Below are positions 577 to 60,007 of a stretch of 64,000 nt of DNA, one piece after another. A model generated the notes under the pieces. The model saw only the letters and a list, made by a program, of their open reading frames with translations, was not told the DNA's origin and made no database searches. Each line of letters starts with the position of its first letter. The first letter of the stretch is position 1. A program made the translations under genes and the position numbers. Origin of the DNA: a bacterium (GTDB lineage: Bacteria; Patescibacteriota; Patescibacteriia; Magasanikbacterales; GWA2-37-8); NCBI GenBank assembly GCA_043810165.1, contig JBDROJ010000019.1, forward strand, positions 17,524 to 81,523, written 5' to 3'.

Positions 577-3099
577 ATGAATATCATTGAACGCTTTTCA
601 ACCCATCTGCGCGAAGCCATGACTCGTAGCATCACCATGGCTACCGAGCTAAATCAACCTCTGGTTCAGCCTATCCATCTTTTATTTACTTTATGTACTT
701 TAAAAGGATCTGTGGCCAGTGAAATTGCCAGCCGATTGCAAATAAACGACGAGATTATTGAACAAATGATCATTAAACTTCCATCTGAAACAAAAAAAAT
801 GCCGGGCCGAAAAAAAAGACAAATAGCCCAAGCTGAATTAAGCTCTCTATCTCCAAGCGCTAAACAAGCTCTTGAAAAATCTATAATGTACGCTCATCAA
901 CGCCAACATAATTATGTTGGCACCGAACACCTACTTCTAGCATTGATTGATTTAAAAGATAAACTAATCGGCCAAGTATTAAGCATGAGTGGAATAAATC
1001 CTGATGAAATAAAAAACCAACTGGATACTGTTTTAAATAATGCCACTCAATTTCCACAAGTAGCTGAATTATCTGAAACCATGAATAGGATGCAGGAAAG
1101 CCTTGGTGACCCTGTCATGAATACACCCTCAATGACCATGGATAATTCAAAATCAAAATCTCAACAATCTGCTTTGGATTTTTTTGCAACCAATCTGACC
1201 GATCCGGAAATTCAAAAAAATATTGACCCGGTTATCGGACGCAAAGATGAGATTGAACGCCTGACGCAGATACTCTGCCGGCGCACAAAAAACAATCCTG
1301 TACTATTAGGCGATCCCGGAGTTGGTAAAACCGCCATTGTAGAAGGATTGGCTAAAAAAATAAATGAAGGGAAAGTGCCTGGCATATTATTAAATAAAAA
1401 AATATATGCCCTGGATATGGGCATGTTAATTGCCGGCACGACCTTTCGCGGTGAATTTGAATCCCGCCTGCAACATATTATTGAAGATATCGCCAAAAAT
1501 CCAAACATTATTTTGTTTATTGATGAAATCCATAACATTGTTGGTGCTGGCTCAAATCAAGGCACCATGGACGCATCAAATATATTAAAACCTGTATTGG
1601 CGCGCGGACACATCCGATGTATCGGCGCTACCACTCCAACTGAATTTAAAAAATATATAGAAAACGACTCTGCCCTGGAACGCCGATTTCAACCTATTTA
1701 TGTCAAACAATCCAGCGTGGAGGACACTATCAAAATCCTCAAAGGGATAAAAATCAATTATGAAAAATACCACAATGTAAAAATTACTGATAAAGCCGTA
1801 AAAGCGGCCGCTTATTTGGCTGATAGATATATTACTGATAAATTATTGCCTGACAAAGCCATTGATCTGCTTGATGAAACAGCGGCCAGTAAAAAAATGG
1901 CCGGCAAAATTACTCCTCAACAGAGCAATCTCTTAAAATTAGAGCAAGAATTGGAAAAAACCACAGTAGCCAAAGAAAAAGCTACCTTTGATGATAATTT
2001 TCAACAAGCTGTTAAATTAAAAGCCCAAGAACACAAGTTGGCAAAACAAATCCAACAGCTACAAAACCAAAATGCCAAAAAACAATTAACCAAAAAACCA
2101 ATTGGTTCAATTACTAATAAGGATGTGCTTAAACAATTAAGCAAGGTAATTAACACTCCGGTAGATGAATTAATTTTAGATAAAAAAGAAAAATTAAAAA
2201 ACCTGGAAACAGAATTAAAAAAATCAATTATAGGCCAAGATCGAACTATCACCCAGGTAAGTCAGACAATCCGCCAAGCTCAACTGCAAATTTCCAATCC
2301 TGAACGGCCCATGGCTTCTTTTATGTTTGTTGGTGAAAGCGGAATGGGCAAAACCGAGCTAGCCAAAACTCTAAGCCAAGTACTGTATCCCAGCCAAGAT
2401 GCGCTCATTGCATTAAACATGAGTGAATTTAATGAAAGTCATAGCGTATCTAAATTGTTGGGCTCACCTGCCGGATATATTGGCTACAAAGAAAGTAATC
2501 AATTCACTGACAAGATAAAAATGAATCCTTATTGTGTGATTCTACTTGATGAAATAGACAAAGCCCATGCTGATGTAACCAAGCTATTATTACAAATTCT
2601 AGAAAATGGAGAAATTACTGACTCAACGGGCAGGAAAATTTCTTTAAAACATGCTATAATAATACTAACCACTACTGCCGGTGCCCAACAGGCAAAAAAA
2701 GGTGGTATTGGTTTTGGTGATACAAAAAATCACCAAGCTGAAATTGAAAAAAAGGTGATTGAACATCTAAAAGAATACTTCAGTATAGAGATGATAAACC
2801 GAGTAGATAAAATATGTTTGCTTAATACTTTGCAAACCCAGGAATTGGCTAAAATCGCCCAGTTAGAAATCAAGATGTTTAATGATCAGCTAAAAAAATA
2901 CAAAACTAAAATTCACGCCGAAGATCAAACCATTGAATGGTTGATCAAACAGATATCTCAATCAGATCTGGATGCCAGAACCGTGCGTGGCCATGTCAGA
3001 CAAGAAGTGGAAAGATTAATGTCAGATTTATTGTTAAATGAAAAAGTAAAACCCAAATATCACCTAGAAGCAATTGGCAACCAACTGCTAATAAAATGA
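577..3099 (+). CDS. clpC: Clp/Hsp100 AAA+ chaperone ATPase (ClpC/ClpB-like), two AAA modules
   Basis: Clp_N-like N-terminus. First Walker A is GDPGVGKTA and the second is VGESGMGKTELAKTL. A short coiled-coil middle region and a length of 840 aa fit ClpC better than ClpB. Confidence 0.85.
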   Translation: MNIIERFSTHLREAMTRSITMATELNQPLVQPIHLLFTLCTLKGSVASEIASRLQINDEIIEQMIIKLPSETKKMPGRKKRQIAQAELSSLSPSAKQALEKSIMYAHQRQHNYVGTEHLLLALIDLKDKLIGQVLSMSGINPDEIKNQLDTVLNNATQFPQVAELSETMNRMQESLGDPVMNTPSMTMDNSKSKSQQSALDFFATNLTDPEIQKNIDPVIGRKDEIERLTQILCRRTKNNPVLLGDPGVGKTAIVEGLAKKINEGKVPGILLNKKIYALDMGMLIAGTTFRGEFESRLQHIIEDIAKNPNIILFIDEIHNIVGAGSNQGTMDASNILKPVLARGHIRCIGATTPTEFKKYIENDSALERRFQPIYVKQSSVEDTIKILKGIKINYEKYHNVKITDKAVKAAAYLADRYITDKLLPDKAIDLLDETAASKKMAGKITPQQSNLLKLEQELEKTTVAKEKATFDDNFQQAVKLKAQEHKLAKQIQQLQNQNAKKQLTKKPIGSITNKDVLKQLSKVINTPVDELILDKKEKLKNLETELKKSIIGQDRTITQVSQTIRQAQLQISNPERPMASFMFVGESGMGKTELAKTLSQVLYPSQDALIALNMSEFNESHSVSKLLGSPAGYIGYKESNQFTDKIKMNPYCVILLDEIDKAHADVTKLLLQILENGEITDSTGRKISLKHAIIILTTTAGAQQAKKGGIGFGDTKNHQAEIEKKVIEHLKEYFSIEMINRVDKICLLNTLQTQELAKIAQLEIKMFNDQLKKYKTKIHAEDQTIEWLIKQISQSDLDARTVRGHVRQEVERLMSDLLLNEKVKPKYHLEAIGNQLLIK

Positions 3100-3108: not shown

Positions 3109-4668
3109 ATGCCTGACCAGAATACCACAGACAATAACGAAAACCTGGACGACCAACTTTTATATACACCACCTGATTCTGAAGACCAACAAGATCAAGA
3201 CACAGAAGATCAAAATCAAACCAGCTCCAAGCCTGGTAAAGTTAGTAAACTTCCAGACAAATCAGTAGATCTGGGTGATATAAGTTCCGGACAAAAAAAA
3301 CAAATTGATAGTGAAATTAAAATACCACTGGATGATTTAGAAATACAAGGGAAATTGCCGGCCAGGGCACCTGAAGAATTAGGTGAAGATGAACCACCAG
3401 ATGAGCCAGGAAAACAAAATCAAACAAAACCAGAACCCGAGCAAAACGAACAGGATCAAAATTTGCCCGCTAAAAAACCGGATCATAAAAAATCGGAAAA
3501 GCAAAAATCTGCAGATAAACCTTCAAAATCAGATCAATCCAAAGATCAACAACAAGAAGAAAAACCCGAGCAAGAGCCTGAAGAATCAGAACAAGACGAG
3601 TCAGAAGAGGAAGAAGGAGAAGAACAACCCGATGATGGAGAAGCCGAGCCAAGCGCAGAGCAAGGCCAAGGACAACCAGGAGAACAAAGCGAGCAAGGCC
3701 AAGAAGATGAGCAGGAACCCGAACAAGAAGAAGACGAAGAATCAGATCAAGACGAGCCAGAACAAGATCAGCCAACTGAAGAACCTCCAACCCAACCGGA
3801 TGAGCAACTGCCAAAACCACCAGAACCACATAAGCCAAAACCAAAATCCGAGCCAGAATCTGATTCAAAAAAAGAAGATTTAGAAGATAAAAAGAAAGAA
3901 TTGGAAGAAGATCTAGAAAAAGGAGACCAAGAAAAAAAAGAAGATCGTCAACAACCCGAAACCAAACCAGAAGAAAAATCCAAACCTGTTGAAAAAAAAG
4001 AACCACCCAAGGCCAAACCAAAAAAAAAGAAAAAGCCCAGTACCACCCCACAGCAACTAGATCCAAAACAGCAACAAGATGCACAAACTCAAATGCAACA
4101 ACAGCAACAAGCTGAACGAATGAAACAACAAAAAGAACAAGATGAGGATCAACAACAAAAATCTCAACAACCCGAGCAAGGAGAATATGAGGGACAAGAA
4201 TCCGAACAAGAAGAACAAGAGCAAGGAGAGCAAGAACAAGAAGGAGAGGCAGAAGCACAGGCTGAACAAGCCGAACAAGCTCAAAAATCACTTAAGGAAA
4301 TCAATCAACAAATATTAACAAAAGAAAAACAAATCAAACAGTTAAAAAAATCGATCGCACCAGCGCAAAGAAAAATATGGTTAAAAACATGGGCGCTGAG
4401 AGGTATGAAATTTTGGTATTTCCTAGTTATAATGGCTGAAATTATCCTTGCTATTTCAATTATAGGCTGGGCAGTAATAGAATACGTAGAAAAATACAGG
4501 CAAAAATTAAGTAAACAAATTAAAAAAATTAAAAAAGAATTAAAAGCAGAACAGAAAGCTATTCAAAACACAGTAGACAAGATAAAAGGCTTGCAAAGAG
4601 AACTAAATTTATTATACAGAGAAAAACTTGAAGCTCAAGGCATGTTGATTCCTAATGCACGCATTTAA
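3109..4668 (+). CDS. Highly acidic low-complexity (E/D/Q/K/P-rich) protein with a C-terminal transmembrane helix and coiled coil
   Basis: 519-aa ORF starting 10 nt after the clpC stop. It is extremely compositionally biased (EQ/ED repeats, a KKKKKKP stretch). The C-terminus WYFLVIMAEIILAISIIGWAV is hydrophobic and is followed by a coiled-coil segment. Confidence 0.6.
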   Translation: MPDQNTTDNNENLDDQLLYTPPDSEDQQDQDTEDQNQTSSKPGKVSKLPDKSVDLGDISSGQKKQIDSEIKIPLDDLEIQGKLPARAPEELGEDEPPDEPGKQNQTKPEPEQNEQDQNLPAKKPDHKKSEKQKSADKPSKSDQSKDQQQEEKPEQEPEESEQDESEEEEGEEQPDDGEAEPSAEQGQGQPGEQSEQGQEDEQEPEQEEDEESDQDEPEQDQPTEEPPTQPDEQLPKPPEPHKPKPKSEPESDSKKEDLEDKKKELEEDLEKGDQEKKEDRQQPETKPEEKSKPVEKKEPPKAKPKKKKKPSTTPQQLDPKQQQDAQTQMQQQQQAERMKQQKEQDEDQQQKSQQPEQGEYEGQESEQEEQEQGEQEQEGEAEAQAEQAEQAQKSLKEINQQILTKEKQIKQLKKSIAPAQRKIWLKTWALRGMKFWYFLVIMAEIILAISIIGWAVIEYVEKYRQKLSKQIKKIKKELKAEQKAIQNTVDKIKGLQRELNLLYREKLEAQGMLIPNARI

Positions 4669-4690: not shown

Positions 4691-5926
4691 TTGCGTATGC
4701 TAAATACCAAAAGAACTATTTTAATTATTCTGCTTTTATTGGCAACTATTTTAATAGGCCTAGCCATATACTTTTTTCTTTTCAAACAACAATCCCCTTT
4801 TGACTTTTTTACTAATGATCAGACAACCACAACAACAGTTGAAACTTTGCCCGGATCAGGACAACGAGTGGTAACATCAACAGACGGGACAATAATCGGA
4901 GCAGAAACTCTGCCAACTGCGCAAATAACGCAACAACCTGTCCAACCCAGCTATTTTCAACCCAAAGCCGTGGAAAAAATAACTTCAGATTATGCGATCT
5001 TTCCTTCTCTAAATCAAGACGGCGGATATCGCTACCACAATGCATCAGATGGTAAATTCTATAGCATCACAGATAGTGGAGAAAGTAAATTACTAGCAGA
5101 CAAAGTTTTTTATAATGTAAGTAAAGTAACTTGGGCAGAAACCAAAGACAAGGCCGTAATTGAATATCCAGATGATTCAAAAATTATCTATGATTTTGAA
5201 AACAACAAGCAAGTAAGCCTGCCAAAGCATTGGGAAGATTTTTCCTTTTCACCCGAAGGCAGTGAAATCGTGGCCAAAAGTTTGGGTATTTCCACGGAAA
5301 ACCGATGGCTGATTACCATGAATGATGACGGAACCGGTTTAAAAACCATTGAACCCATGGGAAACAACGCTGATTATGTAACCGTGGATTGGTCGCCTAG
5401 CAGGCAAGTCATAGCATTTTCCAACACAGGCGAAGCCATTGGCGCTGATCGCACTGAAATACTACTGGTTGGTTTAAATAAAGAAAATTTCAAGGCTCTC
5501 ACCATTGAAGGCAATGGTTTTGAATCAGAATGGTCCCCTACCGGCAAAAAATTATTATACAGTGCTTACAGCGCCCGCAGTGAATACAAGCCCGAGTTAT
5601 GGATATCAGATGCTTATGGCGACAGTGTTAACGAAAATCGCCAAATGCTTAATATCAACACATGGCCTGACAAATGCTCTTTTGGCGATGATAACACTAT
5701 TTATTGTGCTGTACCCAGAAGCTTACCCGAAGGTGCAGGCATGTCCAAAGCCATCGCCAATAGCATATATGACGATCTATATAAAATAGATCTAAGCACC
5801 GGCTTAAAAACTCCAATTTCATTGGATGATAATTATACTATTCAGAATATCTCTTTTGATAAAAAAAATAACAAACTGCTTTTCACTGATATTTATGATT
5901 CAGGAGTGTTTGAAGTAAGCTTATAA
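4691..5926 (+). CDS. TolB-like / PD40 beta-propeller repeat protein with an N-terminal membrane anchor
   Basis: N-terminal hydrophobic segment ILIILLLLATILIGLAIYFFLF. Repeated DWSP / EWSPTGKKLLYSA motifs are typical of TolB/PD40 propeller blades. Confidence 0.6.
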   Translation: MRMLNTKRTILIILLLLATILIGLAIYFFLFKQQSPFDFFTNDQTTTTTVETLPGSGQRVVTSTDGTIIGAETLPTAQITQQPVQPSYFQPKAVEKITSDYAIFPSLNQDGGYRYHNASDGKFYSITDSGESKLLADKVFYNVSKVTWAETKDKAVIEYPDDSKIIYDFENNKQVSLPKHWEDFSFSPEGSEIVAKSLGISTENRWLITMNDDGTGLKTIEPMGNNADYVTVDWSPSRQVIAFSNTGEAIGADRTEILLVGLNKENFKALTIEGNGFESEWSPTGKKLLYSAYSARSEYKPELWISDAYGDSVNENRQMLNINTWPDKCSFGDDNTIYCAVPRSLPEGAGMSKAIANSIYDDLYKIDLSTGLKTPISLDDNYTIQNISFDKKNNKLLFTDIYDSGVFEVSL

Positions 5927-5941
5927 TTAATTTATGTCTTT

Positions 5942-6598
5942 ATGACTCACAAAAAATTGCATTTGGGCATTCTGGTTCTAATACTGCTAGTAGTATTTTT
6001 ATTAGGCAAAGAAATTAAAAAAACGGCTGGCATCACTACTAAAAAAGAAATTATCCCAATTATATCAAGCGGAACCGTGGACATACCAATATACAAGACC
6101 GATCCGATTTATGGCAACCCGGGCGCACAATTAACCATAATTGAATTTATTGATTTTAATTGTAAAGACTGTGTTAAAATTCACAATCAATTAACAGATT
6201 TTGTGGACAAAAATCAACAAAAAGCCAGAATAGTATGGAAAGGTGTGCCAGAACCAACTATTTTTTCCATTCCAAACTTTTTAGCGCACCAAGCTATTTT
6301 ATGTGCACAAAAACAAAACAAAGCTTGGCAATTTATAAAAATATTAATGCAGGATAAAAAAAATACCACGCCTGAAGGCCTAAAAAATACTGCTCAAGGA
6401 TTAAATCTTAATACAGTTGACTGGTGGAAATGCACTGAATCCATTGAATCAAGATACATAATAAATACTTCAACTAATATAGCAACTGAACTTGGTATTA
6501 GTTATTCATTACCCACGATTTTTGTAAATAATCACTGGGTTAATGTAAACGAAGACATCAAATTGGAAGAGATTTTAAAACAGTTTGTTGAGAAATAA
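5942..6598 (+). CDS. DsbA-like thiol:disulfide oxidoreductase (thioredoxin fold, CxxC)
   Basis: N-terminal signal/anchor and an FNCKDCVKIH CxxC motif in a thioredoxin-like context. Size is ~218 aa. Confidence 0.55.
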   Translation: MTHKKLHLGILVLILLVVFLLGKEIKKTAGITTKKEIIPIISSGTVDIPIYKTDPIYGNPGAQLTIIEFIDFNCKDCVKIHNQLTDFVDKNQQKARIVWKGVPEPTIFSIPNFLAHQAILCAQKQNKAWQFIKILMQDKKNTTPEGLKNTAQGLNLNTVDWWKCTESIESRYIINTSTNIATELGISYSLPTIFVNNHWVNVNEDIKLEEILKQFVEK

Positions 6599-6604
6599 AA
6601 ACCT

Positions 6605-8530
6605 ATGATATCAGTCAAAACTAAAATACTAATCTACCTAATATTTCTGGTATCTTTTTTTTCCTTTACACATCAATCGGTAGCAGCACAAGATTATTGT
6701 ATCGGCTGGTTGGCCAATAAAAATACCATCACATGCCTAGGAGTGTCTCATTACAAAGACTGCCAACCGGTCAGTAACTCCCTAACTAAATATAAAGCGA
6801 TTATTCCCTGGGGTTCAGAGTCACAGCCTACCCCTACTTTACCAAAAGACTTTCACCTACTAACCTCAAATATATATTCTGATGCAACAAAGTGTAATAC
6901 TGCTATTGCCAGTATTAATACAAAAGGATTTTGCGTTCACCACAAAAAAAATAGATGTATATCCAAACACATCGATAGTCCGGCTGACTGTTCCAAGTCA
7001 AATCCTACCAATTACAAAACATATAAAGAGTGCTACGATATACTAACAGGTAAAACAAAAACCACTTGCACCAAACACGCAGACTGTGTAGGTGGCCGCT
7101 TTTGTCTGTTATCTAAGTGTTACGCCATAACCGATTTACATATTCATACAGATAAAAAATGTAAGACGGATAAAGATTGTACTTTTGACAGTAAGCCGGG
7201 AGTCTGTAAATCAATGTATAGTCTTGGCTCTACCGCGTTTTCTGCTGGCAAGTCACCTAATGTGCCTGATGTATACCAAAGCTATTGTTTCCTTCTTGAC
7301 CCTGTTGTCACACCAATAAAAAAAACAATCACCTGGAAATCAAAAATACCTGACATTAGTATTAGAATACCAGGCCTAACCTTTGCTAGCATTCAAGACT
7401 CTATTACATTAGATGATGACGGACGCAAAATTATTAACATTCCTTGGGTCGGTCAATACATAACAGCAGTATATAAATTTGCCTTGGCCTTGGCCAGCGT
7501 AGTGGCTGTAGTTATGTTAATAATTCAAGGCGTAACAATCATGATGTCTGGTGGGGGTGAAGCCAAACAAGGTGCATATAAAAAAATACTACAAATATTT
7601 GTTGGCTTAGGCATAATGTGGGGATCTTATGCTATCTTGTATAATATCAATCCAGACTTGGTTAAATTCAAAGCTTTAGCTGTGACGATGGTTGAAAAAG
7701 AAGAAGCTAAATTTGAATCAGATTCAGTTAATCTTGGTACTGGGTCGGCAGCTGGCTCATCAGCCGCTGGCGCTTCAGGACCAAGTTACTCATCATCTAA
7801 AAATAAATACATAATACCATCTTACAAACAATGGAAGGGTGCTTGGGCCAAAGAAACTTTACCAATGAGCAGTAGCAAAATGAGCAGTAAAGGCTGTGTT
7901 TTTGTCTCTTATGCAATTGCCCTTCAAGCATTATACAATGATGGAACAAACCCATCTTCTTTAAAAAAATTATATACAGATGCTAAACAAGGCGATAATG
8001 TCAATATTGATCTTTACTACCAAAAAGATTTTATGAAAAATAGGTATCCGGGTTTAAAGGTTACTAGGATGAAGCGACCAGCAAAAATCAGCGACTTTAC
8101 CAGTGCCTTGGATCAAGGCAAACTCATAGCAGTCCGTGTTTATACAAGCGCCTTTACAGGCGGAGGACATCAATTTGTTATATATGATTATTATGAAAAA
8201 GGTGGTAAATATTATGTAAAAGTTTCAGACCCAGGCACGGGTGATAGTGCATATACTCGTTGCACCAAGGATATGAGTGGAAAATACGCTAAAGATGACG
8301 CAAAAATAAAAGACAAATTAAAAAAAGATAGAGATTTGAGTGAACAAGGTAAAACTAGTGGGTTCCTATGTGGTGATCCATATAAATTATCTCTTCAATC
8401 ACGTTGCCAGAATACTAATTGTGCTGGCCCAAAAGGAGTGGCTTTTGGACCAAATAATTATCCTTTGGAATACATAATGCGTGTAGGTGTAATGATGAAA
8501 GACTCTTTTGTATTTGAAAGAACTAACTGA
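6605..8530 (+). CDS. Secreted cysteine-rich protein, paralog A. It has an N-terminal signal peptide, Cys-rich repeats, a conserved double-TM hairpin, and a C-terminal papain-like (CHAP/C39-like) Cys...His domain
   Basis: Signal peptide ILIYLIFLVSFFSFTHQSVAA. Cys motifs such as TCTKHADCVGGRFCLLSKCY. The central ~130-aa block TITWKSKIPDISIRIPGLTFASIQ...VYKFALALASVVAVVMLIIQGVTIMMSGGGEAKQGAYKKILQIFVGLGIMWGSYAILYNINPDLVKFKALAVTMVEKEE is nearly identical to the one in the next gene. The C-terminus has GCVFVSYAIAL (candidate nucleophile Cys) and GGGHQFVIYDYY (candidate His). Confidence 0.55.
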   Translation: MISVKTKILIYLIFLVSFFSFTHQSVAAQDYCIGWLANKNTITCLGVSHYKDCQPVSNSLTKYKAIIPWGSESQPTPTLPKDFHLLTSNIYSDATKCNTAIASINTKGFCVHHKKNRCISKHIDSPADCSKSNPTNYKTYKECYDILTGKTKTTCTKHADCVGGRFCLLSKCYAITDLHIHTDKKCKTDKDCTFDSKPGVCKSMYSLGSTAFSAGKSPNVPDVYQSYCFLLDPVVTPIKKTITWKSKIPDISIRIPGLTFASIQDSITLDDDGRKIINIPWVGQYITAVYKFALALASVVAVVMLIIQGVTIMMSGGGEAKQGAYKKILQIFVGLGIMWGSYAILYNINPDLVKFKALAVTMVEKEEAKFESDSVNLGTGSAAGSSAAGASGPSYSSSKNKYIIPSYKQWKGAWAKETLPMSSSKMSSKGCVFVSYAIALQALYNDGTNPSSLKKLYTDAKQGDNVNIDLYYQKDFMKNRYPGLKVTRMKRPAKISDFTSALDQGKLIAVRVYTSAFTGGGHQFVIYDYYEKGGKYYVKVSDPGTGDSAYTRCTKDMSGKYAKDDAKIKDKLKKDRDLSEQGKTSGFLCGDPYKLSLQSRCQNTNCAGPKGVAFGPNNYPLEYIMRVGVMMKDSFVFERTN

Positions 8531-8569
8531 CAAAAAAACTATACTGCAATCAATGCTTAAACAATTTAT

Positions 8570-10567
8570 TTGTTTAAAAATTTAAAAATGAATTATAATT
8601 TAACAAAAAAACTACTTAATTTTACTTTCCTACTGTTTGTAATTGGTTTTGTTTTTTTATGGACGGGGCAAGTCTTTGCTACCGTTGGATACTGCGCAGT
8701 CTGGAATAGTGTTACAAATAAAAATGAATGTGTAAAAACAAGTGCTGTTAGCTGTGACTCCGCGACTGGCCAATATATACCTTTGCGTAGCCTGTTAATT
8801 GTGAACTTTAATGGCTATACAAAACAAGCTTGTGAAACCGTTCTCAAAAATGTAGAAAACCAAGGCTATTGCGTTTCCCAAGCAACGCAACAATTTAGTA
8901 GTCAATGTGTGTCTCGTTATTTTAATCCATATTTAAAATGTAAAAGCATCATTTACACAGTTTCATTTGGAGAATGTATGCAAGCCCTTAATAAAACTGC
9001 TAGTGCCTGCAAAAAACACAGTGATTGTGTAGGCTATGATAGCTACTGTTTAGGAGGTAAATGTGTTAACACAAAGACGGACTTACAATTTTCCCAAGAG
9101 ACTTGCCACAAAGATTCTGATTGTGTAAAAAATGGTAACCAAGGTATTTGTAACTACAAAGGAATCCCAGGTGGAAAATTTTTAGCAAAATACTACTGCT
9201 ATTATAAAAAAGGAGCTATTACCCCTCAACCAACAAAAACAATAACCTGGAAATCCAAAATACCTGAAATTAGTATCAGAATACCAGGCCTGACCTTTGC
9301 TAGTATTCAAAATTCTATTACTGTAGATACTGATGGACACAAAGTTATTAATATCCCCTGGATCGGACAGTATATAACAGCAGTATATAAATTTGCCTTG
9401 GCCTTGGTCAGTGTAGTGGCTGTGGTTATGTTAATAATTCAAGGTGTAACCATCATGATGTCTGGTGGAGGTGAAGCCAAACAAGGTGCATATAAAAAAA
9501 TACTACAAATATTTGTTGGTCTAGGCATAATGTGGGGCTCTTATGCAATGCTATATAATATTAATCCAGATTTGGTTAAATTTAAAGCTTTGGCTGTGAC
9601 GATGGTTGAAAAAGAAGAATCAACAGAGGAAGTGCCAAACTCGAATGATAATGTAAAATATAATTTAAAAGGAGAAAAAACTTTTGGGCCAATATTAGAA
9701 AAAGTTTCCAAAAAGGTAGGTATAGAATACTGTTTAGTAAGCGCACAGATATCAAGGGAATCTGGCTGGTCAACAGGCGCACATACCTCGTATGCTTTTG
9801 GTTTGGGGCAAGTGAGTTGGTATTATGCTACCACTTTATTATCTAGCCCAACCAAAAAAGCACAGATAGTATCTTACCATTCCAAAAACGACAGCAGTAC
9901 TTATCCGGTAGTACCTAGCGGGTTAACATATGATGCAGACGTTAAATCTCTACCAAAAGATCAAAGAGACGCACTAAAACAAAAAGTGGGTGATTGGCTA
10001 ATGGCTGATGCCGAAGCCAATATTATTATTACGACTTTATCTAAAAAATCAAGCCTCTCAAACACAAGTGCCTTTCATAAAGGCAATCCTATACTAGCCG
10101 CTGTAAATCATTATTATGGAATGGGTGCTTACTCTAAATTCTTAAAAAAAATGAAAGAATACAGGGCCAAAGGTTTAGTATCTGATACACAATGTACTGA
10201 AGCAGGATCTGTTAGCTTAACTGAATTTCTACAAGCTGCCAAAGATGGTAATACCACTAAACTGGAAGATCTTTATAATAAATCCTGCATACCACCCAAC
10301 AAATTCGCTTGGACTAATTATAAAACCAGCGGGGCCATGCCATATTTCTGTCCTCCAACCAAAAAAGGAGATACTATGCAATGTTGTACAAAAGAATCTT
10401 TATCAACTGGGACATGCATAATGCCAACACATACAGCCAATGGTAATAAAGGATTTTGTTTTGATGGTGTTAGAAAAGGTGAACCATGTAACTCAACTGG
10501 AGCTTTAAATTACGTGAAAAAGTACAGCACCTTCCTACAACAATGCTTAAACAGAAAAAAAACGTAA
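8570..10567 (+). CDS. Secreted cysteine-rich protein, paralog B. It has the same central double-TM hairpin as paralog A and a C-terminal lytic transglycosylase (SLT-like) domain
   Basis: Signal peptide FLLFVIGFVFLWTGQVFA. Cys motifs CKKHSDCVGYDSYCLGGKCV and CHKDSDCVKNGNQGICNY. The central block is ~95% identical to paralog A. The C-terminus IEYCLVSAQISRESGWSTGAHTSYAFGLGQV matches the SLT catalytic E-S...GLMQ pattern. Confidence 0.55.
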   Translation: MFKNLKMNYNLTKKLLNFTFLLFVIGFVFLWTGQVFATVGYCAVWNSVTNKNECVKTSAVSCDSATGQYIPLRSLLIVNFNGYTKQACETVLKNVENQGYCVSQATQQFSSQCVSRYFNPYLKCKSIIYTVSFGECMQALNKTASACKKHSDCVGYDSYCLGGKCVNTKTDLQFSQETCHKDSDCVKNGNQGICNYKGIPGGKFLAKYYCYYKKGAITPQPTKTITWKSKIPEISIRIPGLTFASIQNSITVDTDGHKVINIPWIGQYITAVYKFALALVSVVAVVMLIIQGVTIMMSGGGEAKQGAYKKILQIFVGLGIMWGSYAMLYNINPDLVKFKALAVTMVEKEESTEEVPNSNDNVKYNLKGEKTFGPILEKVSKKVGIEYCLVSAQISRESGWSTGAHTSYAFGLGQVSWYYATTLLSSPTKKAQIVSYHSKNDSSTYPVVPSGLTYDADVKSLPKDQRDALKQKVGDWLMADAEANIIITTLSKKSSLSNTSAFHKGNPILAAVNHYYGMGAYSKFLKKMKEYRAKGLVSDTQCTEAGSVSLTEFLQAAKDGNTTKLEDLYNKSCIPPNKFAWTNYKTSGAMPYFCPPTKKGDTMQCCTKESLSTGTCIMPTHTANGNKGFCFDGVRKGEPCNSTGALNYVKKYSTFLQQCLNRKKT

Positions 10568-10585: not shown

Positions 10586-11938
10586 ATGCCAAACAACAAA
10601 ACAATCTTTGTTTGCAATAACTGCGACGCCCAATTTGCAAAATGGACGGGTAGGTGTTTGGAATGCGGAAAATGGGGAACCATACAAGAAGGTCAAGACC
10701 CTAGTATCAAATCTCAAAATGAAAAATCAAATTCAAATCAATATAGTGCTATAAAAACAGTGGGCCTGGATGAAATCAAAGACCAAGATATTGAACGAAT
10801 ACAAACCGGGATTGAAGAATTGAATCGTGTGTTGGGTGGGGGCTTGGTACCTGGCAGTTTAATTTTACTGGGCGGAGAACCCGGTGTTGGAAAATCCACT
10901 CTAGCTCTGCAAATTGCCGACATTATCCACAACACAATGTATATCTCAGGTGAAGAATCGGTTGGACAAATAAAATTACGAGCCAATAGACTAAAATTAT
11001 TTTCTAAAAGTCTTAAATTGGCTAATGAAACAAATATTGACAGCGTTATCGCCACTGTTGCGAAAGAAAAACCAACTCTATTAGTGATTGATTCAATCCA
11101 AACCATTTCAACTGATGAAGTCGCGGGCACATCAGGCAATGTCAACCAAGTTCGCGCCTGCACTGTCAAATTAATGGAAGTTGCAAAAAAAACCAAAACA
11201 ATTATTATTATGGTCGGCCAAATTACTAAGGATGGTGATTTAGCTGGACCCAAAACTTTAGAACATCTAGTTGACACCGTGCTATATTTAGAAGGTGATA
11301 AATTTCACCAATTTAGACTTTTGCGCACTGCAAAAAATCGCTTCGGATCCACTGACGAAGTTGGCGTATTTTCTATGCAAGAATTTGGTCTGCAAGAAGT
11401 AGCCAATCCTTCCCAGGCTTTTATTTCAGGCCGTCCCAAAGATGTACCGGGCACAACGGTTACCTGCCTGTTAGAAGGCACTCGTCCCCTGCTAGTGGAA
11501 ATCCAAGCATTGGTTAGTAAAACTAATTTTGGCTATCCACAAAGACGCACGTCCGGCTTTGATTTAAACCGCTTGCAAGTTTTAATTGCCGTACTATCAC
11601 GCCGAACTGGCCTGCCACTGGATTCATATGATGTATTCTTGAATGTGGCTGGTGGTATGAAAGCCAATGAACCAGCCGCTGATTTGGCAGTGGTTTTAGC
11701 AATTGCTTCAGCGTTGAAAAACAAAGTGCTTCCATCAAATTTAGCTTCGTTTGGCGAGATTGGCTTGGGCGGAGAAATACGCGCAGTCAGCCAAGCCAAA
11801 AGACGCTTACAGGAAATTAAAAAACTGGGTTTTGAATTTGCTGTAATGCCTCATTCCACTGAACAAACAAAAATTACGGGCTTAAAAATTGCACCCGTAA
11901 AAAACGTAAAAGAATTAGTTGAAAAGATTATTAAGTAA
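10586..11938 (+). CDS. radA: DNA repair protein RadA/Sms
   Basis: N-terminal zinc finger CNNCDAQFAKWTGRCLECGKWGT, Walker A GGEPGVGKST, and a Lon-protease-like C-terminal domain. Confidence 0.9.
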   Translation: MPNNKTIFVCNNCDAQFAKWTGRCLECGKWGTIQEGQDPSIKSQNEKSNSNQYSAIKTVGLDEIKDQDIERIQTGIEELNRVLGGGLVPGSLILLGGEPGVGKSTLALQIADIIHNTMYISGEESVGQIKLRANRLKLFSKSLKLANETNIDSVIATVAKEKPTLLVIDSIQTISTDEVAGTSGNVNQVRACTVKLMEVAKKTKTIIIMVGQITKDGDLAGPKTLEHLVDTVLYLEGDKFHQFRLLRTAKNRFGSTDEVGVFSMQEFGLQEVANPSQAFISGRPKDVPGTTVTCLLEGTRPLLVEIQALVSKTNFGYPQRRTSGFDLNRLQVLIAVLSRRTGLPLDSYDVFLNVAGGMKANEPAADLAVVLAIASALKNKVLPSNLASFGEIGLGGEIRAVSQAKRRLQEIKKLGFEFAVMPHSTEQTKITGLKIAPVKNVKELVEKIIK

Positions 11939-43710: not shown

Positions 43711-44451
43711 TTATATTTTCCTCTCCTCTGGCCCGGTATATTCAGCTTCTGCTGTACTTAAACGACGTAAACCGTCTTTACTGTTCATCTCTTCGTAGAT
43801 ATGAGCTACCAAACCGGGCACGCGACCAATAATGAAAAATCCTTTGGCCATACGCCAATCAAAACCCATATCAGACATGACTGCACCCATAGCACCATCG
43901 ATATTAAGAGGTAGTCTTTTGGACAAAACCTGATTTAATTCTTTGTGTACTTTTTCAGCTAATTGACAATGTTTGCTATAAATACCAGTTTCTTTGGCTA
44001 CTTCAAACAGAGCTTGGCTACGTGGATCATGTTCTAAAATTTTATGACCATAACCTGGAATACGAATTTTCTGTTGTTTTAATTGCTTGATCAAACCAGC
44101 CACATCCGATTTGGCAACATTTTCTTGAAAAAATTTGGCCGCACCTTCAATAGCACTACCATGTAGTTTACCCATAGACAAGATACCAGCAGCCAAAGCC
44201 GTATGCATGCTATTACCAGTAGAAACAACTGTACGTGCTGTCATGGCCGAAGAAACGCCAATACCATGATCAATAGCAGCTGTAAACAAAGCGTTCATCA
44301 TTCTAGTCTGGTTAGTATCAGGTAACTCACCTTTTAAAACCAAAAAAATAGTTTCTGCAAAACTTTTTTCATGGATCAGATCTTTGAGATCGTAACCACG
44401 AATGGTTTCTTTCCCATCACTTACATTACTAATCGATGTTTTCCATTGCAT
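43711..44451 (-). CDS. Short citrate-synthase-family protein (citryl-CoA lyase-like)
   Basis: 246 aa with the citrate synthase signature IPGYGHKIL and an Asp-containing C-terminal region. Directly downstream of the SCS-like alpha and beta genes. Confidence 0.55.
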   Translation of the reverse strand: MQWKTSISNVSDGKETIRGYDLKDLIHEKSFAETIFLVLKGELPDTNQTRMMNALFTAAIDHGIGVSSAMTARTVVSTGNSMHTALAAGILSMGKLHGSAIEGAAKFFQENVAKSDVAGLIKQLKQQKIRIPGYGHKILEHDPRSQALFEVAKETGIYSKHCQLAEKVHKELNQVLSKRLPLNIDGAMGAVMSDMGFDWRMAKGFFIIGRVPGLVAHIYEEMNSKDGLRRLSTAEAEYTGPEERKI

Positions 44452-44462
44452 ATGGTTTTAAA

Positions 44463-45395
44463 TTATGAATAAGGTTTAGCTAGTTCAACTAAATGTTCGT
44501 ATGTATCGGCTATCATTACTCCTACTTCTGATAAAGCCTTTTCCTTTTCAGCCGCACCTTTACCCCGTTCTACAATCGCACCAGCATGACCGACATTCAT
44601 TCCCTCGGGTAAAACACCCGCAAACTTACCACCTATATATATGGCCAAAGGCTTGGTAAATTCTTGTTTATTTATCAAATCAACAATTTCAAACTCATAA
44701 CTACCACCGTGCTCTCCAAAAATCACTACCACTTTAGTTTGTTCATCTTTTTCAAACATTTTTAACAAGTCAGCGTAAGTAGTACCCATTAATAGATCTC
44801 CACCCACATGAACCACTGTACTTTGGCCTAGACCTGCTTTGCGAATCTGCCAAGCCAATTCATTAGTCATACCGCCGGAACGAGAAATTGCACCCACACT
44901 GCCTGGTTGGAATATTTCTTCAACCAACGGGCCACCCACTACCCCAACTCTGGCTTTGCCCGCTGAAATATACCCTAATGAACTTGGCCCTATAATACGA
45001 ATATCCTTTTCTTTGGCAGCTGCCAGACAATAAGCTGTGTCTTGAATAGGCACTCTTTCCGTCATGATATTTATAACAGAAATGTCATTTTCAATTGCTT
45101 CCATAATTGCCTGCTTGGTGGCAAAAGGAGGCACATAAATGGCGCTGGTGATATTGTGACGAGATTGCTTCGCTTCGCCTGCCTGCCGGACAGGCAGGCT
45201 CGCAATGACAGATAATACTTCGGCCACGGTATCAAAAACCGGCACGCCAAAAACTTGTTCACCGGCTTTGCCAGGGCGCACGCCACCTACCAATTTGGTG
45301 CCATAGTCAAGCATGGCTTGAGTGGCTCGCTGGCCTTCTTTGCCTGTTATACCTTGGATCAAAACTTTTGTATCTTGATTTATCAAAATACTCAT
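44463..45395 (-). CDS. Succinyl-CoA synthetase alpha-like subunit (CoA-binding; citryl-CoA synthetase small-subunit candidate) carrying an in-frame repeat-derived insertion
   Basis: MSILINQDTKVLIQGITGKEG...phospho-His loop MNVGHAGAIV. It aligns with SucD, except for an extra ~17 aa (SLPVRQAGEAKQSRHNI) encoded by a copy of the TGTCATTGCGAGC...GAAGCAATCTCG repeat. Confidence 0.7.
   Translation of the reverse strand: MSILINQDTKVLIQGITGKEGQRATQAMLDYGTKLVGGVRPGKAGEQVFGVPVFDTVAEVLSVIASLPVRQAGEAKQSRHNITSAIYVPPFATKQAIMEAIENDISVINIMTERVPIQDTAYCLAAAKEKDIRIIGPSSLGYISAGKARVGVVGGPLVEEIFQPGSVGAISRSGGMTNELAWQIRKAGLGQSTVVHVGGDLLMGTTYADLLKMFEKDEQTKVVVIFGEHGGSYEFEIVDLINKQEFTKPLAIYIGGKFAGVLPEGMNVGHAGAIVERGKGAAEKEKALSEVGVMIADTYEHLVELAKPYS
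45160..45215. repeat. Repeat element copy D, inserted in-frame inside the SCS-alpha-like CDS
   Basis: Minus-strand sense reads tctgtcattgcgagc-cctgcctgtccggcaggcagg-cgaagcgaagcaatctcgtcac. The family flanks are present around a perfect 8-bp-stem GC hairpin. Local GC is much higher than the surrounding gene. Confidence 0.7.
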
Positions 45396-46033
45396 ACTTG
45401 TTTGGAAAATATTTGTTTATTTTTCTTAATTTTCTTCAAGTCCCAATTCCACCATTCTAATTTTACCAACTTGTTTTTAGTTTGTTCCGAAAAACGATCG
45501 CTGACTTTTTTGGCCGGCACACCAGCCCACACTTCATAAGGACCAATCTTGGTGTTTTGTTTCACTACTGAACCGGCTCCCACTACAGCGCCATTACTAA
45601 TCTCTGTTCCAGATAATATCACTGAATTAGCTCCAATCCAAACATCATTTCCTATTTTTACTTCAGTGCCTAGGTCTTTAAAATCCTTGTCCCCTATAAT
45701 ATGCCTAATCGGGTAAGTAGTAATTTTTTTAACATCATGATCGTTGGTAGAGACAATAAAAACACTCCTGGCTATTGAACAAAATTTACCGATACTAATG
45801 CCATGTTCAGATGAAGCAAATAGCTCGGTAGAATTATTGCAATATGAATAATCTCCGATACTTACCTTGCCAGTTATAGCGACATTTCTTAACAACTGCA
45901 CTCTCTTGCCAAATCTAACCAAGCCCTTTAAAAAATCTTTCTTACAAATATATACCGGCGGTTTTAACTTTATACTTGGATTTTTTATCCTAATATAATT
46001 GAGAATAAAAAACTGTTTGATTATTTCCCACAT
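45392..46033 (-). CDS. Left-handed beta-helix (hexapeptide-repeat) acetyltransferase, CatB/Vat/MAT-like
   Basis: Hexapeptide repeats IGDYSY..., IGKFCSIARSVFIV, IGNDVWIGANSVILSGTEISNGAVVGAGSVV. Confidence 0.65.
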   Translation of the reverse strand: MWEIIKQFFILNYIRIKNPSIKLKPPVYICKKDFLKGLVRFGKRVQLLRNVAITGKVSIGDYSYCNNSTELFASSEHGISIGKFCSIARSVFIVSTNDHDVKKITTYPIRHIIGDKDFKDLGTEVKIGNDVWIGANSVILSGTEISNGAVVGAGSVVKQNTKIGPYEVWAGVPAKKVSDRFSEQTKNKLVKLEWWNWDLKKIKKNKQIFSKQV

Positions 46034-46042
46034 ACTTTTTAT

Positions 46043-47188
46043 TTAATTATTAATCATCTGTGCCAATATTTGGGCTGTTTGACTCATGGATACTTCTTTG
46101 CCAAATAATTTTACTTGCAGACCATTACGCTTTGCGCAATCCTTCATTAACCGCATGCCTTGTTCTTCATTTGGCCCGGCCCGACGAACAACTATTGGAT
46201 AATTAGGCTTAACTTCATCCAGGGCATTAATAATCCCTTGAAAAGTTTCAGCCACATCAGTAAAATTAGCCACCCCACCAGCAATCCACAAACCTTTTAA
46301 ACCAGGTCTAGATAAAACAACCTTGGCTAATTGGCAAACCTTTTCTTTAGGAGGATTACCAGAATATTCAGTATAATTAGCTGGCTTTAATCCAACCTTG
46401 TACAAAGCATCCATATTGGCGATACTAGCACCTCCACCAGAAAACAAAACCGCTATATCTCCATCCATTTCAATGTATCTACTGGCCGTGCCACGATAAT
46501 AGTCTTTGCCTTGATCAATTTTCTTTACCACTATTTCGCGCTCGGTAAGTGACCGACCCATCATGGTGCGCGCTTCTAGATCATTCCAATCTTCATGTCT
46601 AAATATGGCGTCCTCATCCAAAGCAATTTTTGCATCAACTGCCAACCACTTTCCATCTTTTGTTTTTACCAGGGGGTTAATCTCTACCAAACGAGCGTCT
46701 TCCTCTATAAAACACCTCCATAATTCCTTGGCCAAAGGAATATCGATATCTATCACTTCTTTTCTTATATCCAGGTAGTATTTCTCTATCTCTTGATCTG
46801 GAACAACTTCAATATCAACCCCACCTTGCTGACTGTAAACCAAAACCGGTTGTTTTTTGTTGGTATCATAGGTAATAGACAGGTAATATTCTTCTGCAAT
46901 ATCTAATTTCTCTTCAATGCGTACTGCCGTCACATACTGGTTCCTCACTTGCATGTCAAATAATTCTTTACAAGCTTGTTTAACTTGTTGGGCTGAAGAA
47001 CAAGGTCTGATAGCATTATTTTTACCACGACCTCCGGATAATACTTGCGCCTTTACCATTACATTCTCAGTCTCTAATCCTTCGTATGCTTGTACATAAT
47101 CATCACCACGCCTAACAACCACACCTTTGGGTATGGATATACCATATTTATCAAAAATATTTTTCCCTTCAAACTCGTAGAGATTCAT
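46043..47188 (-). CDS. Succinyl-CoA synthetase beta-like ATP-grasp subunit (citryl-CoA synthetase large-subunit candidate)
   Basis: MNLYEFEGKNIFDKYGISIPKG matches the SucC N-terminus. ATP-grasp and CoA-ligase domains. 381 aa. Confidence 0.7.
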   Translation of the reverse strand: MNLYEFEGKNIFDKYGISIPKGVVVRRGDDYVQAYEGLETENVMVKAQVLSGGRGKNNAIRPCSSAQQVKQACKELFDMQVRNQYVTAVRIEEKLDIAEEYYLSITYDTNKKQPVLVYSQQGGVDIEVVPDQEIEKYYLDIRKEVIDIDIPLAKELWRCFIEEDARLVEINPLVKTKDGKWLAVDAKIALDEDAIFRHEDWNDLEARTMMGRSLTEREIVVKKIDQGKDYYRGTASRYIEMDGDIAVLFSGGGASIANMDALYKVGLKPANYTEYSGNPPKEKVCQLAKVVLSRPGLKGLWIAGGVANFTDVAETFQGIINALDEVKPNYPIVVRRAGPNEEQGMRLMKDCAKRNGLQVKLFGKEVSMSQTAQILAQMINN

Positions 47189-53307: not shown

Positions 53308-53309
53308 AA

Positions 53310-56772: not shown

Positions 56773-56795
56773 AAATATAAAAATTAAAAAATTAA

Positions 56796-58032: not shown

Positions 58033-58692
58033 TTATCTTATTCCGTTCCATTCGGCAATAAATTCATCAATAAAACTTAACAAAAATTCGCTCCTTCTCT
58101 TGGCTATTTTTTTGCCAGTTTTGGTATTCATCATCTCCGACAATCTCAAAGACTTCTCAAAAAAATAATTCAAGCTGGTGCCTTCATATTTTTTCTTCTG
58201 ATAATCTAATTTATTTAAACCAGTACGCGGTTTAATATCTGGGTCATACATCATGCGTCCGATTTGTCCGCCTGTTGCAAAACCCCTGGCTATACCTATT
58301 GCTCCAACAGTCTCAAGCCAATCCGCATCTTGAATAATTTTGCCTTCAATGGTTGATGGCACTTTGGTTTCACTACCCTTGTATTGCGATTCTGATACTA
58401 TACGCATAATCCGGCGCTGTGTATCTCGATTTATTTCCAAAATATCCATCATGGCATCTAATACCAAATTACCCTTGTATTCATTATAATCATGCTTTTT
58501 GTAATCACCAAGGTCATGCACCAAAGCGGCTAATTCAATCACCGATAGATTTCCACCTTCTTCCCTTTGCAATATCCTGGCCATGCGCAAAACCCTTTGG
58601 GCATGATACCAATCATGACCTGTTGGCTCGCCCCAAAGCTTGGATTTTACATAAGTGGCCACTCTTTTCACCAATATTTCTGATGTAGTCAT
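58033..58692 (-). CDS. HD-domain phosphohydrolase
   Basis: HD motif H...HD (WYHAQRV...VHDLGD). The likely start is MTTSEILVKR; the longer ORF-track N-terminus overlaps the 5S rRNA. Confidence 0.6.
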   Translation of the reverse strand: MTTSEILVKRVATYVKSKLWGEPTGHDWYHAQRVLRMARILQREEGGNLSVIELAALVHDLGDYKKHDYNEYKGNLVLDAMMDILEINRDTQRRIMRIVSESQYKGSETKVPSTIEGKIIQDADWLETVGAIGIARGFATGGQIGRMMYDPDIKPRTGLNKLDYQKKKYEGTSLNYFFEKSLRLSEMMNTKTGKKIAKRRSEFLLSFIDEFIAEWNGIR

Positions 58693-58751
58693 ATATATGT
58701 TATTTTCTGTGTTTAGCTTAGCAGAAATAGTGAAAATTGGCAATAAAAAAA

Positions 58752-58876
58752 GACCATTGTCCTGGCGCCGGCTTACTTTTGCTTTACAGCTATCATCAGC
58801 GTTGGGAAGCTTAACTACCGTGTTCGGGATGGGAACGGGTGTAACCTTCTCACTTGAGGCACCAAGACAATGGTCT
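58752..58876 (-). rRNA. rrf: 5S ribosomal RNA
   Basis: Helix I inverted ends agaccattgtc...gacaatggtct. The minus-strand sense contains CCCGTTCCCATCCCGAACACGGTAGTTAAGC, the 5S loop B/C consensus. Confidence 0.8.
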
Positions 58877-59212
58877 CTTGTTTTTTCCAGGGTATTGTTT
58901 TTAAGCACTGCTTAGTGTTTTTGTCGTATGCTCGGCTTATTAGTACGCCTCGGCTTAACTCTTTACAGAGCTTAGACCTGGCGCCTATCAACCTCGTAGT
59001 CTACAAGGAGCCTATAACGAATATTAATCTTGAGGACGGCTTCACGCTTAGATGCTTTCAGCGTTTATCCGCGCCAAACGTAGCTACCCAGCAATGCCCT
59101 TGGTAGGACAACTGGTACACTAGAGGTTCGTCCACTCCGGTCCTCTCGTACTAGGAGCAGGTCCTCTCAATATTCAACGCCCACAGCGGATAGGAGACCG
59201 AACTGTCTCACG

Positions 59213-59974: not shown

Positions 59975-60007
<33 letters not shown>

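Follow-up and report, generated by a model that had tools for sequence, protein, structure and literature searches.

We analysed a 64,000-nucleotide window of a Magasanikbacterales (Patescibacteria) genome (contig JBDROJ010000019.1, positions 17,524 to 81,523, of assembly GCA_043810165.1) and focused on two adjacent genes, here called A and B, that encode large cysteine-rich proteins. The two proteins share an almost identical pilin-type membrane hairpin and end in unrelated C-terminal domains that are putative wall-acting enzymes. The hairpin recurs in a large family of proteins, and between related genomes the C-terminal domain is exchanged at a conserved junction, within a conserved gene order that includes a DsbA-like oxidoreductase. 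The interpretation that we prefer, with a probability of about 0.5, is that A and B are membrane-tethered, DsbA-oxidised peptidoglycan hydrolases built on a pilin-derived module, and that their target is most likely the cell's own sacculus. The window otherwise contains housekeeping genes.

Two mosaic proteins built around a shared pilin-type hairpin

Gene A (6605..8530, + strand) encodes 641 amino acids (aa) and gene B (8570..10567, + strand), which starts with TTG, encodes 665. Both open reading frames (ORFs) lie exactly where a preliminary description of this DNA had placed them, and both proteins match NCBI entries (A is P0002 in our protein set and is annotated as "pilin"; B is P0001). 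Each protein begins with a hydrophobic signal-like segment (...SVAA|QDYC in A, ...QVFA|TVGYC in B), seen in a Kyte-Doolittle scan and in line with the signal peptides already proposed. A Cys-rich ectodomain and the hairpin follow, and the chain ends in a C39-like cysteine peptidase domain in A and in an SLT-motif domain with a Cys-rich tail in B. BLASTP aligned A and B over only the first ~376 residues, at 47% identity, and found nothing in common beyond. The identity is distributed as a mosaic: the N-terminal domains are 28% identical, the shared block is 93% identical and the C-termini are unrelated. The ectodomain of A spans 6689..7321 (+, aa 29-239) and gave a weak match to DUF7107 (E 0.002). 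Both proteins have 16 Cys before the block, at collinear positions, and both contain the C-K-[KH]-x-D-C-V-G motif that had been noted earlier.

We compared the two genes at the nucleotide level. The shared tract covers ~7317-7705 in A and ~9231-9619 in B and has abrupt edges. Nucleotide identity is ~90% across the block (0.82-0.96 in 30-codon windows) and near random in the flanks (~0.3-0.5). The 128 codons of the block differ at 39 nucleotides, 29 of them synonymous and 10 non-synonymous (dS 0.46, dN 0.034, dN/dS ~0.07). The preliminary description had reported a nearly identical block of ~130 aa and had attributed it to gene conversion or strong constraint. The block is indeed far more alike than its flanks, and both explanations apply, given the dS of 0.46 with sharp edges on the one hand and the low dN/dS on the other. 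The mosaic shows, at the level of sequence comparison, that recombination or gene conversion limited to the block homogenised the hairpins of A and B, and it points to strong purifying selection since then. Tandem pairs at the same position in two related genomes (loci L010 and L016, described below) have a block identity of only 52-54%, so the homogenisation is specific to the source genome. The possibility that B is an assembly duplication artefact was rejected: the dS and dN of the block rule it out, the flanks are unrelated and analogous pairs occur elsewhere.

The extended block occupies 7322..7705 in A (+, aa 240-367) and 9236..9619 in B (+, aa 223-350). It runs from short strands (IRIPGL/IPWVGQY in A) through a first transmembrane (TM) helix, the loop SGGGEAKQGAYKK and a second TM helix to INPDLVKFKALAV. 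In AlphaFold2 (AF2) models, the two hydrophobic helices on either side of the loop cover residues 280-314 and 319-348 of A and 263-297 and 301-331 of B, with a predicted local distance difference test score (pLDDT) of 63-79 for the helices of A. Short strands are modelled directly before the first helix and after the second. Together with the hydrophobicity scan and the preceding signal-like segment, these models bear out the double-helix hairpin topology proposed for the block.

The same description had likened the hairpin to VirB2/TrbC-type pilins. Against the Pfam family T4SS_pilin (PF18895), A and B score 14.8-18.2 bits (E 0.0026-0.03; E 0.0026 for the isolated block of A), below the gathering cut-off of 26.6, and their matches to the NCBIfam mycoplasma pilin-like conjugal protein are likewise sub-threshold. 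PF18895 was matched by 15 of 17 aligned relatives (best E 3.5e-9), and two multi-hairpin relatives that were found with the block profile, P0019 and P0146, reach 62 and 53 bits. TrbC (PF04956) was matched by just two of the 17, with E ≥ 0.013. These profile matches support homology of the hairpin to PF18895, the family of VirB2-like pilins of Patescibacteria. The likeness to VirB2 is thus supported through the relatives, with A and B themselves below threshold. A search of the block profile against Protein Data Bank (PDB) sequences returned no VirB2 or TraA match, only generic TM noise such as G-protein-coupled receptors. Because no solved VirB2/TraA structure was reached by sequence, it is PF18895 and the literature on Patescibacterial type IV secretion systems (T4SSs) that connect the block to canonical VirB2.

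A and B have in common with the Patescibacterial VirB2-like pilins a hairpin after a signal sequence, the Hidden Markov Model (HMM) relationship, tandem paralogs and a distribution restricted to Patescibacteria. They differ from these small stand-alone proteins in size (640-665 aa against ~100-150 aa) and in the large ectodomains on both sides of the hairpin, with ~210 and ~185 aa between the signal-like segment and the block and ~275 and ~315 aa after it in A and B, respectively. They also have the extra flanks IRIPGL, IPWIGQY and INPDLVxFKxLKV, and their genes lie between clpC and radA, not near virB4. Between genomes the hairpin of the A/B family is 40-67% identical, compared with ~25% within reported pilin arrays (mean 25%, maximum 54%; Quiñonero-Coronel et al. 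2025, PMC12102498). This conservation, far above that of the arrays, is more in keeping with an interaction module within the membrane than with an exposed subunit of a pilus. Patescibacterial VirB2-like pilins are also treated in Wang et al. 2023 (PMC10633639). Reviews and primary papers on Patescibacterial T4SSs portray these pilins as small, divergent and arranged in arrays, and remark on how few VirB1 homologues there are. Some proteins carry two to six tandem pilin hairpins per polypeptide (up to ~12 TM helices), sometimes followed by an SLT domain (P0019, P0026, P0032, P0091, P0136 and P0146; locus L015, 589-2427).

The C-terminal domain of A lies at 7790..8239 (+, aa ~396-545). Searched as a full protein against Pfam, A gave neither a direct Peptidase_C39_2 (PF13529) match nor a CHAP match, and phmmer searches of A and B against PDB sequences returned noise only. 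With hhalign, the C-terminus of A aligned to 16 C39_2-bearing relatives over 131 columns with a probability of 95.9% (E 5.4e-9), and to a 4-member C39_2 set with a probability of 75%. The Gln of YKQW, Cys431 of KGC, His522 of GGGH and Asp542 of SDPG align to Q, GCGPTS, GHY and NDPG of the C39_2 family, with Cys431, His522 and Asp542 as the putative triad, and the domain qualifies as papain-like in fold. The analyses support a C39_2-like papain-fold cysteine peptidase with putative catalysis. The papain-like Cys/His module that had been predicted here is supported, and its type is C39_2, not CHAP.

The C-terminal domain of B (9674..10174, +, aa ~369-535) is a probable lysozyme-like or lytic-transglycosylase-like domain, with a candidate catalytic Glu397 in RESGW followed by GLGQV. 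The sequence RESGWSTGAHTSYAFGLGQV contains an ES-x5-A-x-T-x4-GLGQ motif; the signature of family-1 lytic transglycosylases is ES…GLMQ. In a MAFFT alignment, the motif of B aligns to ESGL..GLFQ of two Pfam-SLT-positive relatives (P0007 and P0008), and E28-S-G-W and G-x-G-Q-V are invariant across B and its full-length orthologs P0003 and P0118. These orthologs also keep the SCIPP..CC..C..C..C..C pattern of the Cys-rich extension that follows (10175..10564, +, 9 Cys). Several weak matches converge on the same kind of enzyme: the isolated domain matches Glucosaminidase (E 0.033) and Phage_lysozyme2 (E 0.17) in Pfam, P0003 matches a PHROG "transglycosylase" (E 0.017), and hhalign of B against SLT-bearing relatives gave E 0.007 with a probability of 5.5%. 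Pfam SLT (PF01464) was not matched by the full protein at E ≤ 1 or by the isolated domain at E ≤ 10. The B-family HMM, compared with 150 family C-termini, matched VanY-type members as weakly as SLT-type ones and so gives no support for SLT. Nothing was found with the B-family profile in the PDB, and the AF2 model (mean pLDDT 50), in which the SLT-motif region is all-helical with pLDDT ~35-70, gave nothing meaningful when this low-confidence structure was compared with the PDB using Foldseek. Of the SLT transglycosylase proposed for B, the ES…GLGQ motif and the converging weak matches remain, and no significant Pfam, PDB or fold match accompanies them. Metagenome scans with the C-terminus of A and with the B-family alignment retrieved no relatives. 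A phage or defence origin was also considered and is unsupported, the PHROGs having given only the one weak match already mentioned.

Exchange of C-terminal domains within a conserved gene order

We searched protein clusters (50% identity) with the block profile and retrieved 32,134 clusters at E ≤ 1e-3, 8466 at E ≤ 1e-10 and 438 at E ≤ 1e-30. Nearly all of the top 150 matches cover the entire 125-position profile, including the three extra flanks, and the proteins are 350-850 aa long. Among the 148 top matches with a single block, 145 have at least 150 aa after the block, and in 124 the N-terminus is hydrophobic. The N-terminal Cys-rich domain varies extremely in both length (1-438 aa) and sequence. 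Its Cys count is even and non-zero in 121 of the 148 members, zero in 22 and odd in five.

Grouped by sequence, the C-termini of the 154 best family members form 27 clusters. Assigned by Pfam matches of representatives, the most populated types are VanY (39 members), SLT (18), Peptidase_C39_2 (16) and Amidase_2 (11+2). Peptidase_M15_4, M23, NlpC/P60, GH73 glucosaminidase and GH18 also occur, along with weak CHAP and 3D matches and several unclassified domains. Judged by these domain assignments, nearly all classes of peptidoglycan hydrolase occur at the C-terminal position of the family. Full-text literature searches, whose coverage did not extend to subscription journals, found no pilin-hydrolase fusions. 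Since some members already carry the co-occurring Pfam domains in database annotation, what is new is the recognition that the extended block serves as a carrier module, the wide range of its cassettes, the conserved operon with the DsbA-like and propeller genes, and the exchange of cassettes from genome to genome. In three more distant genomes (L011 8844-10873, L012 621-2554 and L013 7784-10864), one of them a Candidatus Falkowbacteria metagenome-assembled genome (MAG), we observed a different flavour of tandem arrangement, in which a short Cys-free member (277-341 aa) lies upstream of a longer Cys-rich one. In L011 and L012 the second gene directly follows the first, and in L013 ~860 bp separate them; L011 and L013 also have a DsbA-like gene, located 2-3 kb further upstream.

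Related loci were collected from gene-context look-ups and from a genome scan with a 4-sequence block alignment. In 11 independent loci the genes lie on one strand in the order clpC, a variable gene X, a gene for a TM-anchored propeller-like protein (~405-411 aa), a DsbA-like gene, one or two block-bearing hydrolase genes and, where the contig reaches that far, radA. The neighbourhood of propeller, DsbA-like and hydrolase genes that the preliminary description had singled out for a search of related genomes is therefore kept across them. Gene X encodes a low-complexity protein rich in charged residues, in most cases with a TM segment at the C-terminus. The hydrolase position is filled differently from locus to locus. 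Single genes carry an SLT-motif domain (L001), an unclassified domain termed U5 (L002), C39_2 (L004 and L005), Amidase_2 (L007 and L009), SLT (L008), M23 (L017) or GH18 (L018, protein P0006). Pairs combine VanY with U5 (L010) and SLT with C39_2 (L016), the latter repeating the glycosidase and C39 combination of the source genome in reversed order. Comparison of these loci shows that an enzyme cassette has been exchanged between related genomes at a conserved junction. The MAGs of L008, L009, L010 and L014 are publicly labelled "uncultured Gammaproteobacteria bacterium" and are probably mislabelled. In L002 (1706-2212) and L004 (2070-2531), genes for small stand-alone Peptidase_C39/C39_2/C70 proteins (153-168 aa) lie a few kb upstream of the module; such proteins could have been donors of the C39 cassette.

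The oxidoreductase gene directly upstream of A (5942..6598, +) encodes a 218-aa protein with a TM anchor (aa 7-25) and a CxxC motif (C74-K-D-C77, nucleotides 6161-6172). It matches Thioredoxin_4 with 59 bits (E 8.5e-16; cut-off 23.2) and DSBA with 25.8 bits (E 1e-5; cut-off 25.6), and its CKDC aligns to the CPYC of PDB entry 3gyk (E 2.4e-8). A Thioredoxin_4 gene stands directly upstream of the hydrolase gene or genes in every syntenic locus. By family match, CKDC motif and conserved adjacency, the proposal that a DsbA-like CxxC oxidoreductase is the partner of A and B holds, and we predict that this protein is located outside the cytoplasm.

Upstream of it lies the best-conserved member of the module (4691..5926, +), a protein of 411 aa with an N-terminal TM segment (aa 10-28). 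In most related loci its counterpart shows 55-60% identity to it (37% in the most distant locus), and the gene invariably stands immediately upstream of the DsbA-like gene. The protein had been called TolB-like. Its matches to TIGR02800 (21 bits, cut-off 343) and PD40 (13.9 bits, cut-off 20.9; E 0.05) are sub-threshold only, and membership of TolB was not borne out. No PDB match was found, even with a 5-sequence profile. Its orthologs show faint Tricorn_N/PD40 matches, and a beta-propeller is a plausible assignment from these profiles.

The upstream boundary of the module is a clpC-like AAA+ chaperone gene (577..3099, +; Clp_N, AAA and AAA_2 Pfam matches on the orthologs), conserved in this position and separated by 9 bp from the next gene. 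That gene (3109..4668, +) occupies the position of X and encodes an acidic low-complexity protein of 519 aa; close to its C-terminus lies a single TM segment (aa 439-457), with a K/E-rich coiled coil behind it, and no Pfam family was matched. Its counterparts in seven related loci are divergent in sequence and also lack Pfam matches; most have a TM segment near the C-terminus, and four have a K/E/Q-rich tail. A gene intervenes between clpC and the propeller gene in every case (198-564 aa; L001 6317-8011, L002 7378-7974, L004 6923-7969, L005 7425-8129 and L016 5177-6616). It evolves very fast, with no tblastn match across loci, and is highly charged (35-47% D/E/K/R) in the window and in four other loci. 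The conserved downstream boundary is radA/sms (10586..11938, +, identified by Pfam), 18 bp after B, on which recG converges from the opposite strand. All module genes lie on one strand with gaps of 6-39 bp, the longest of which separates A and B. A promoter and terminator scan found promoter-like sites at no more than chance frequency and no + strand terminator-like site in the gaps of the module.

The position next to radA had suggested a link to DNA uptake. The genes clpC and radA are ancestral neighbours in Firmicutes, and in Bacillus subtilis they are direct neighbours in the ctsR-mcsA-mcsB-clpC-radA-disA operon. Given this adjacency, the radA neighbourhood is most simply ancestral and is no sign of a DNA-uptake function. 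The arrangement suggests instead that an envelope module of four to five genes was inserted between the ancient clpC-radA pair in this clade of Patescibacteria.

We made two further observations elsewhere in the window. ATP-citrate-lyase-like genes lie at 43711-47188, 52282-53376 and 55759-58001 (all on the - strand); one has a citrate-synthase C-terminal domain, one CoA_binding/Ligase_CoA, and one ATP-grasp_2 with Citrate_bind. Genes for a pyruvate:ferredoxin oxidoreductase subunit, a class-I aldolase and phosphofructokinase are nearby, an unusual metabolic set for a Patescibacteria-like genome. The 23S rRNA gene (59937-62616, -) matches the full 2925-position model in only 2680 nucleotides and is thus a shortened large-subunit rRNA, and the 5S rRNA gene (58760-58866, -) lies inside a predicted ORF (58033..58908) that has an HD-domain Pfam match.

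Own wall, host wall or secretion system

We propose the following model for A and B. The Sec-type N-terminus would export the Cys-rich domain. The hairpin would insert with the short, basic loop on the cytoplasmic side, which would return the chain to the outside and make both ectodomains extracytoplasmic. Such a topology agrees with their Cys content and with wall-acting enzymes. The co-encoded, TM-anchored DsbA-like protein would oxidise the ectodomain cysteines; the predominance of even Cys counts in the N-terminal ectodomain and the constant adjacency of a DsbA-like gene favour disulfide formation. The strands before the first helix and after the second may pair on the outer face to form a fixed neck or platform, onto which the exchangeable catalytic cassette would be spliced. 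The C39-like peptidase of A is likely to cut peptide stems or cross-links, and the SLT-motif domain of B would cleave glycan strands. The TM-anchored propeller protein may act as a conserved partner. In the cell's own wall, these activities could make space for growth, for division or for the insertion of envelope machines.

The short tether and linkers and the core chromosomal slot make the own sacculus the most likely substrate, as do the lack of immunity genes and a hairpin that is more conserved than exposed pilin arrays. The idea of a stand-alone envelope module, raised in the preliminary description, agrees with the conserved synteny. A peptidoglycan-related neighbour gives further support: the gene of the multi-hairpin protein P0019 adjoins that of a YkuD L,D-transpeptidase, and lies between it and a Tricorn-like propeller gene. 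Several considerations weigh against this assignment. Close relatives usually share a single catalytic type in their housekeeping autolysins, and turnover of the enzyme type together with a hypervariable Cys-rich domain is more typical of conflict between organisms. The conservation of the hairpin exceeds what a simple anchor would need. To our knowledge, C39_2 peptidases are not established as peptidoglycan hydrolases, so the likely substrate of A is drawn from the family context, and the catalytic assignment of B is a probable one made from motifs and sub-significant matches.

The same turnover would be expected if the tethered enzymes instead cut host peptidoglycan at the contact zone of an episymbiont and opened access for feeding or for other machines, with the cassette and a Cys-rich binding domain diversifying to match host wall chemistry. 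We regard this as the main rival, possible although on balance unlikely. One syntenic slot does change among C39_2, SLT-like, Amidase_2, VanY, M23, GH18 and unclassified types, the C-terminus is swapped at a conserved junction with sharp edges, much like that of polymorphic effectors, and the N-terminal Cys-rich domain varies widely, both across the family and between A and B. The GH18 cassette found in P0006 does not belong to the classical autolysin domains. The Patescibacteria in culture are obligate epibionts, and in S. epibionticum surface proteins that bind or degrade polysaccharides are essential (PMC10633639). Against an attack on the host, no immunity-like small gene lies beside A or B, where the gaps are 39 and 18 bp; the linkers of ~20-30 aa give little reach past the cell's own wall; and the slot is a core one, flanked by housekeeping genes, in every relative examined.

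A true VirB2-type pilin, extracted from the membrane by a T4SS encoded elsewhere, would account for the homology of the hairpin to PF18895, and we consider this improbable. Under such an explanation the proteins would supply the missing VirB1-like wall opener during assembly, or the hydrolase would be built into, or cap, a pilus directed at a target cell. Terminal fusions are geometrically possible, as both termini of VirB2-type pilins point outward in the F and T pilus structures. A recognisable VirB1 is absent from most Patescibacteria with VirB2 homologues, and pilin genes are distant from virB4 in ~40% of assemblies (PMC12102498). The glycosidase and cysteine peptidase pair mirrors the SLT and CHAP domains of PrgK, TraG and TcpG and recurs in L016, and the low-confidence model of B gave a weak Foldseek match to an archaeal conjugative pilin (8dft_A, probability 0.18). 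The gene context and the proteins themselves speak against it. Pfam scans of the 36 larger ORFs of the window (1-59 kb) and of flanks of up to ±10 kb at the related loci found no T4SS genes, which agrees with the earlier remark that no VirB4 or VirD4 is nearby. The proteins are five to six times the size of pilins and would place domains of 200-300 aa at both ends of each subunit, their block is far more conserved than T4SS pilin arrays, and the block profile found no VirB2/TraA match in the PDB. Most genomes have a single copy, with one type of enzyme, in place of an SLT and peptidase pair.

These last points also bear on the suggestion that A and B are a VirB1-like component split across duplicated genes. 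The syntenic genomes carry many hydrolase types, mostly in single copy, and the pairs include one of VanY with an unclassified domain, so the suggestion was not upheld. VirB1-like proteins unite SLT and CHAP in one chain, with an N-terminal TM segment, in a T4SS operon; A and B do not have this combination. PrgK of pCF10, TraG of pIP501 and TcpG of pCW3 are, like A and B, membrane-anchored and extracytoplasmic and combine a glycan cleaver with a papain-fold cysteine peptidase. They do so with one N-terminal TM segment and both enzymes in one polypeptide encoded within the T4SS operon, whereas A and B have a central pilin-type hairpin, one enzyme per protein, a C39_2-like domain rather than CHAP and no T4SS context, and most of their relatives carry other enzyme classes.

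A more far-reaching variant, which we think quite improbable, is that the hairpin polymerises and that a T4SS elsewhere builds the proteins into a pilus or onto its tip as "armed pilins". If it were true, each armed subunit would present a Cys-rich domain that binds the host, together with an exchangeable enzyme that cuts the wall, ultra-small episymbionts would own a filament that drills through the host wall, and cassette exchange would track host wall chemistry. Finally, we think it very improbable that the C-termini have become catalytically dead and now bind the wall or a ligand, as parts of a structural complex of the envelope that includes the propeller protein: neither A nor B passes any Pfam enzyme threshold and their C-termini have no or very few detectable relatives, but A keeps the aligned Gln, Cys, His and Asp, the E-S and G-x-G-Q residues are invariant in B and its orthologs, and many relatives bear canonical above-threshold enzyme domains.

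Comparison with known systems and implications

We compared the A/B family to other systems in which wall-acting enzymes or thiol oxidoreductases are combined with a targeting module. Polymorphic effectors and toxins (LXG, Rhs, CdiA-CT, and the peptidoglycan-hydrolase effectors of type VI secretion systems and of the bacteria-killing X-T4SS, PMC6536674) resemble it in joining a conserved module, N-terminal or for trafficking, at a sharp boundary to a C-terminal enzyme that is replaced like a cassette and in many cases targets peptidoglycan. The A/B proteins differ from these effectors in that they have no adjacent immunity gene, would stay anchored in the membrane, occupy a core syntenic slot rather than an accessory island, and have no secretion-system gene or recognition signal nearby. 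Gram-positive bacteria and phages have modular autolysins and endolysins that likewise mix amidase, M23, NlpC/P60, GH73, SLT and VanY domains onto a targeting module. Their targeting relies on LysM, SH3b or choline-binding repeats, whereas the A/B family uses a membrane hairpin with a disulfide-rich domain and, unlike them, is coupled to a dedicated DsbA. Thioredoxin-fold partners are also found in pilus and competence systems, such as BdbDC for ComGC and ComEC in B. subtilis and TrbB and TraF of the F plasmid. Like the DsbA-like protein studied here, these are membrane-associated thiol oxidoreductases paired with Cys-containing proteins of surface filaments or the envelope. The presumed substrates in our module differ in bearing enzymes and at least 16 Cys, and no pilus or competence genes are adjacent.

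Of the proteins specific to Patescibacteria, VirB2-like pilins rank with the most abundant, and in the sole species tested the T4SS is essential. Our results describe a well-defined, widespread subfamily (at least 438 clusters at 50% identity) in which the pilin hairpin has become the carrier of nearly all classes of peptidoglycan hydrolase. Surveys that equate PF18895 matches with "pilins" lump such enzymes together with filament subunits. The members of this subfamily are candidates for how wall-bearing cells that are poor in division machinery remodel their own wall, and they are also candidates for how Patescibacteria may breach the wall of a host.

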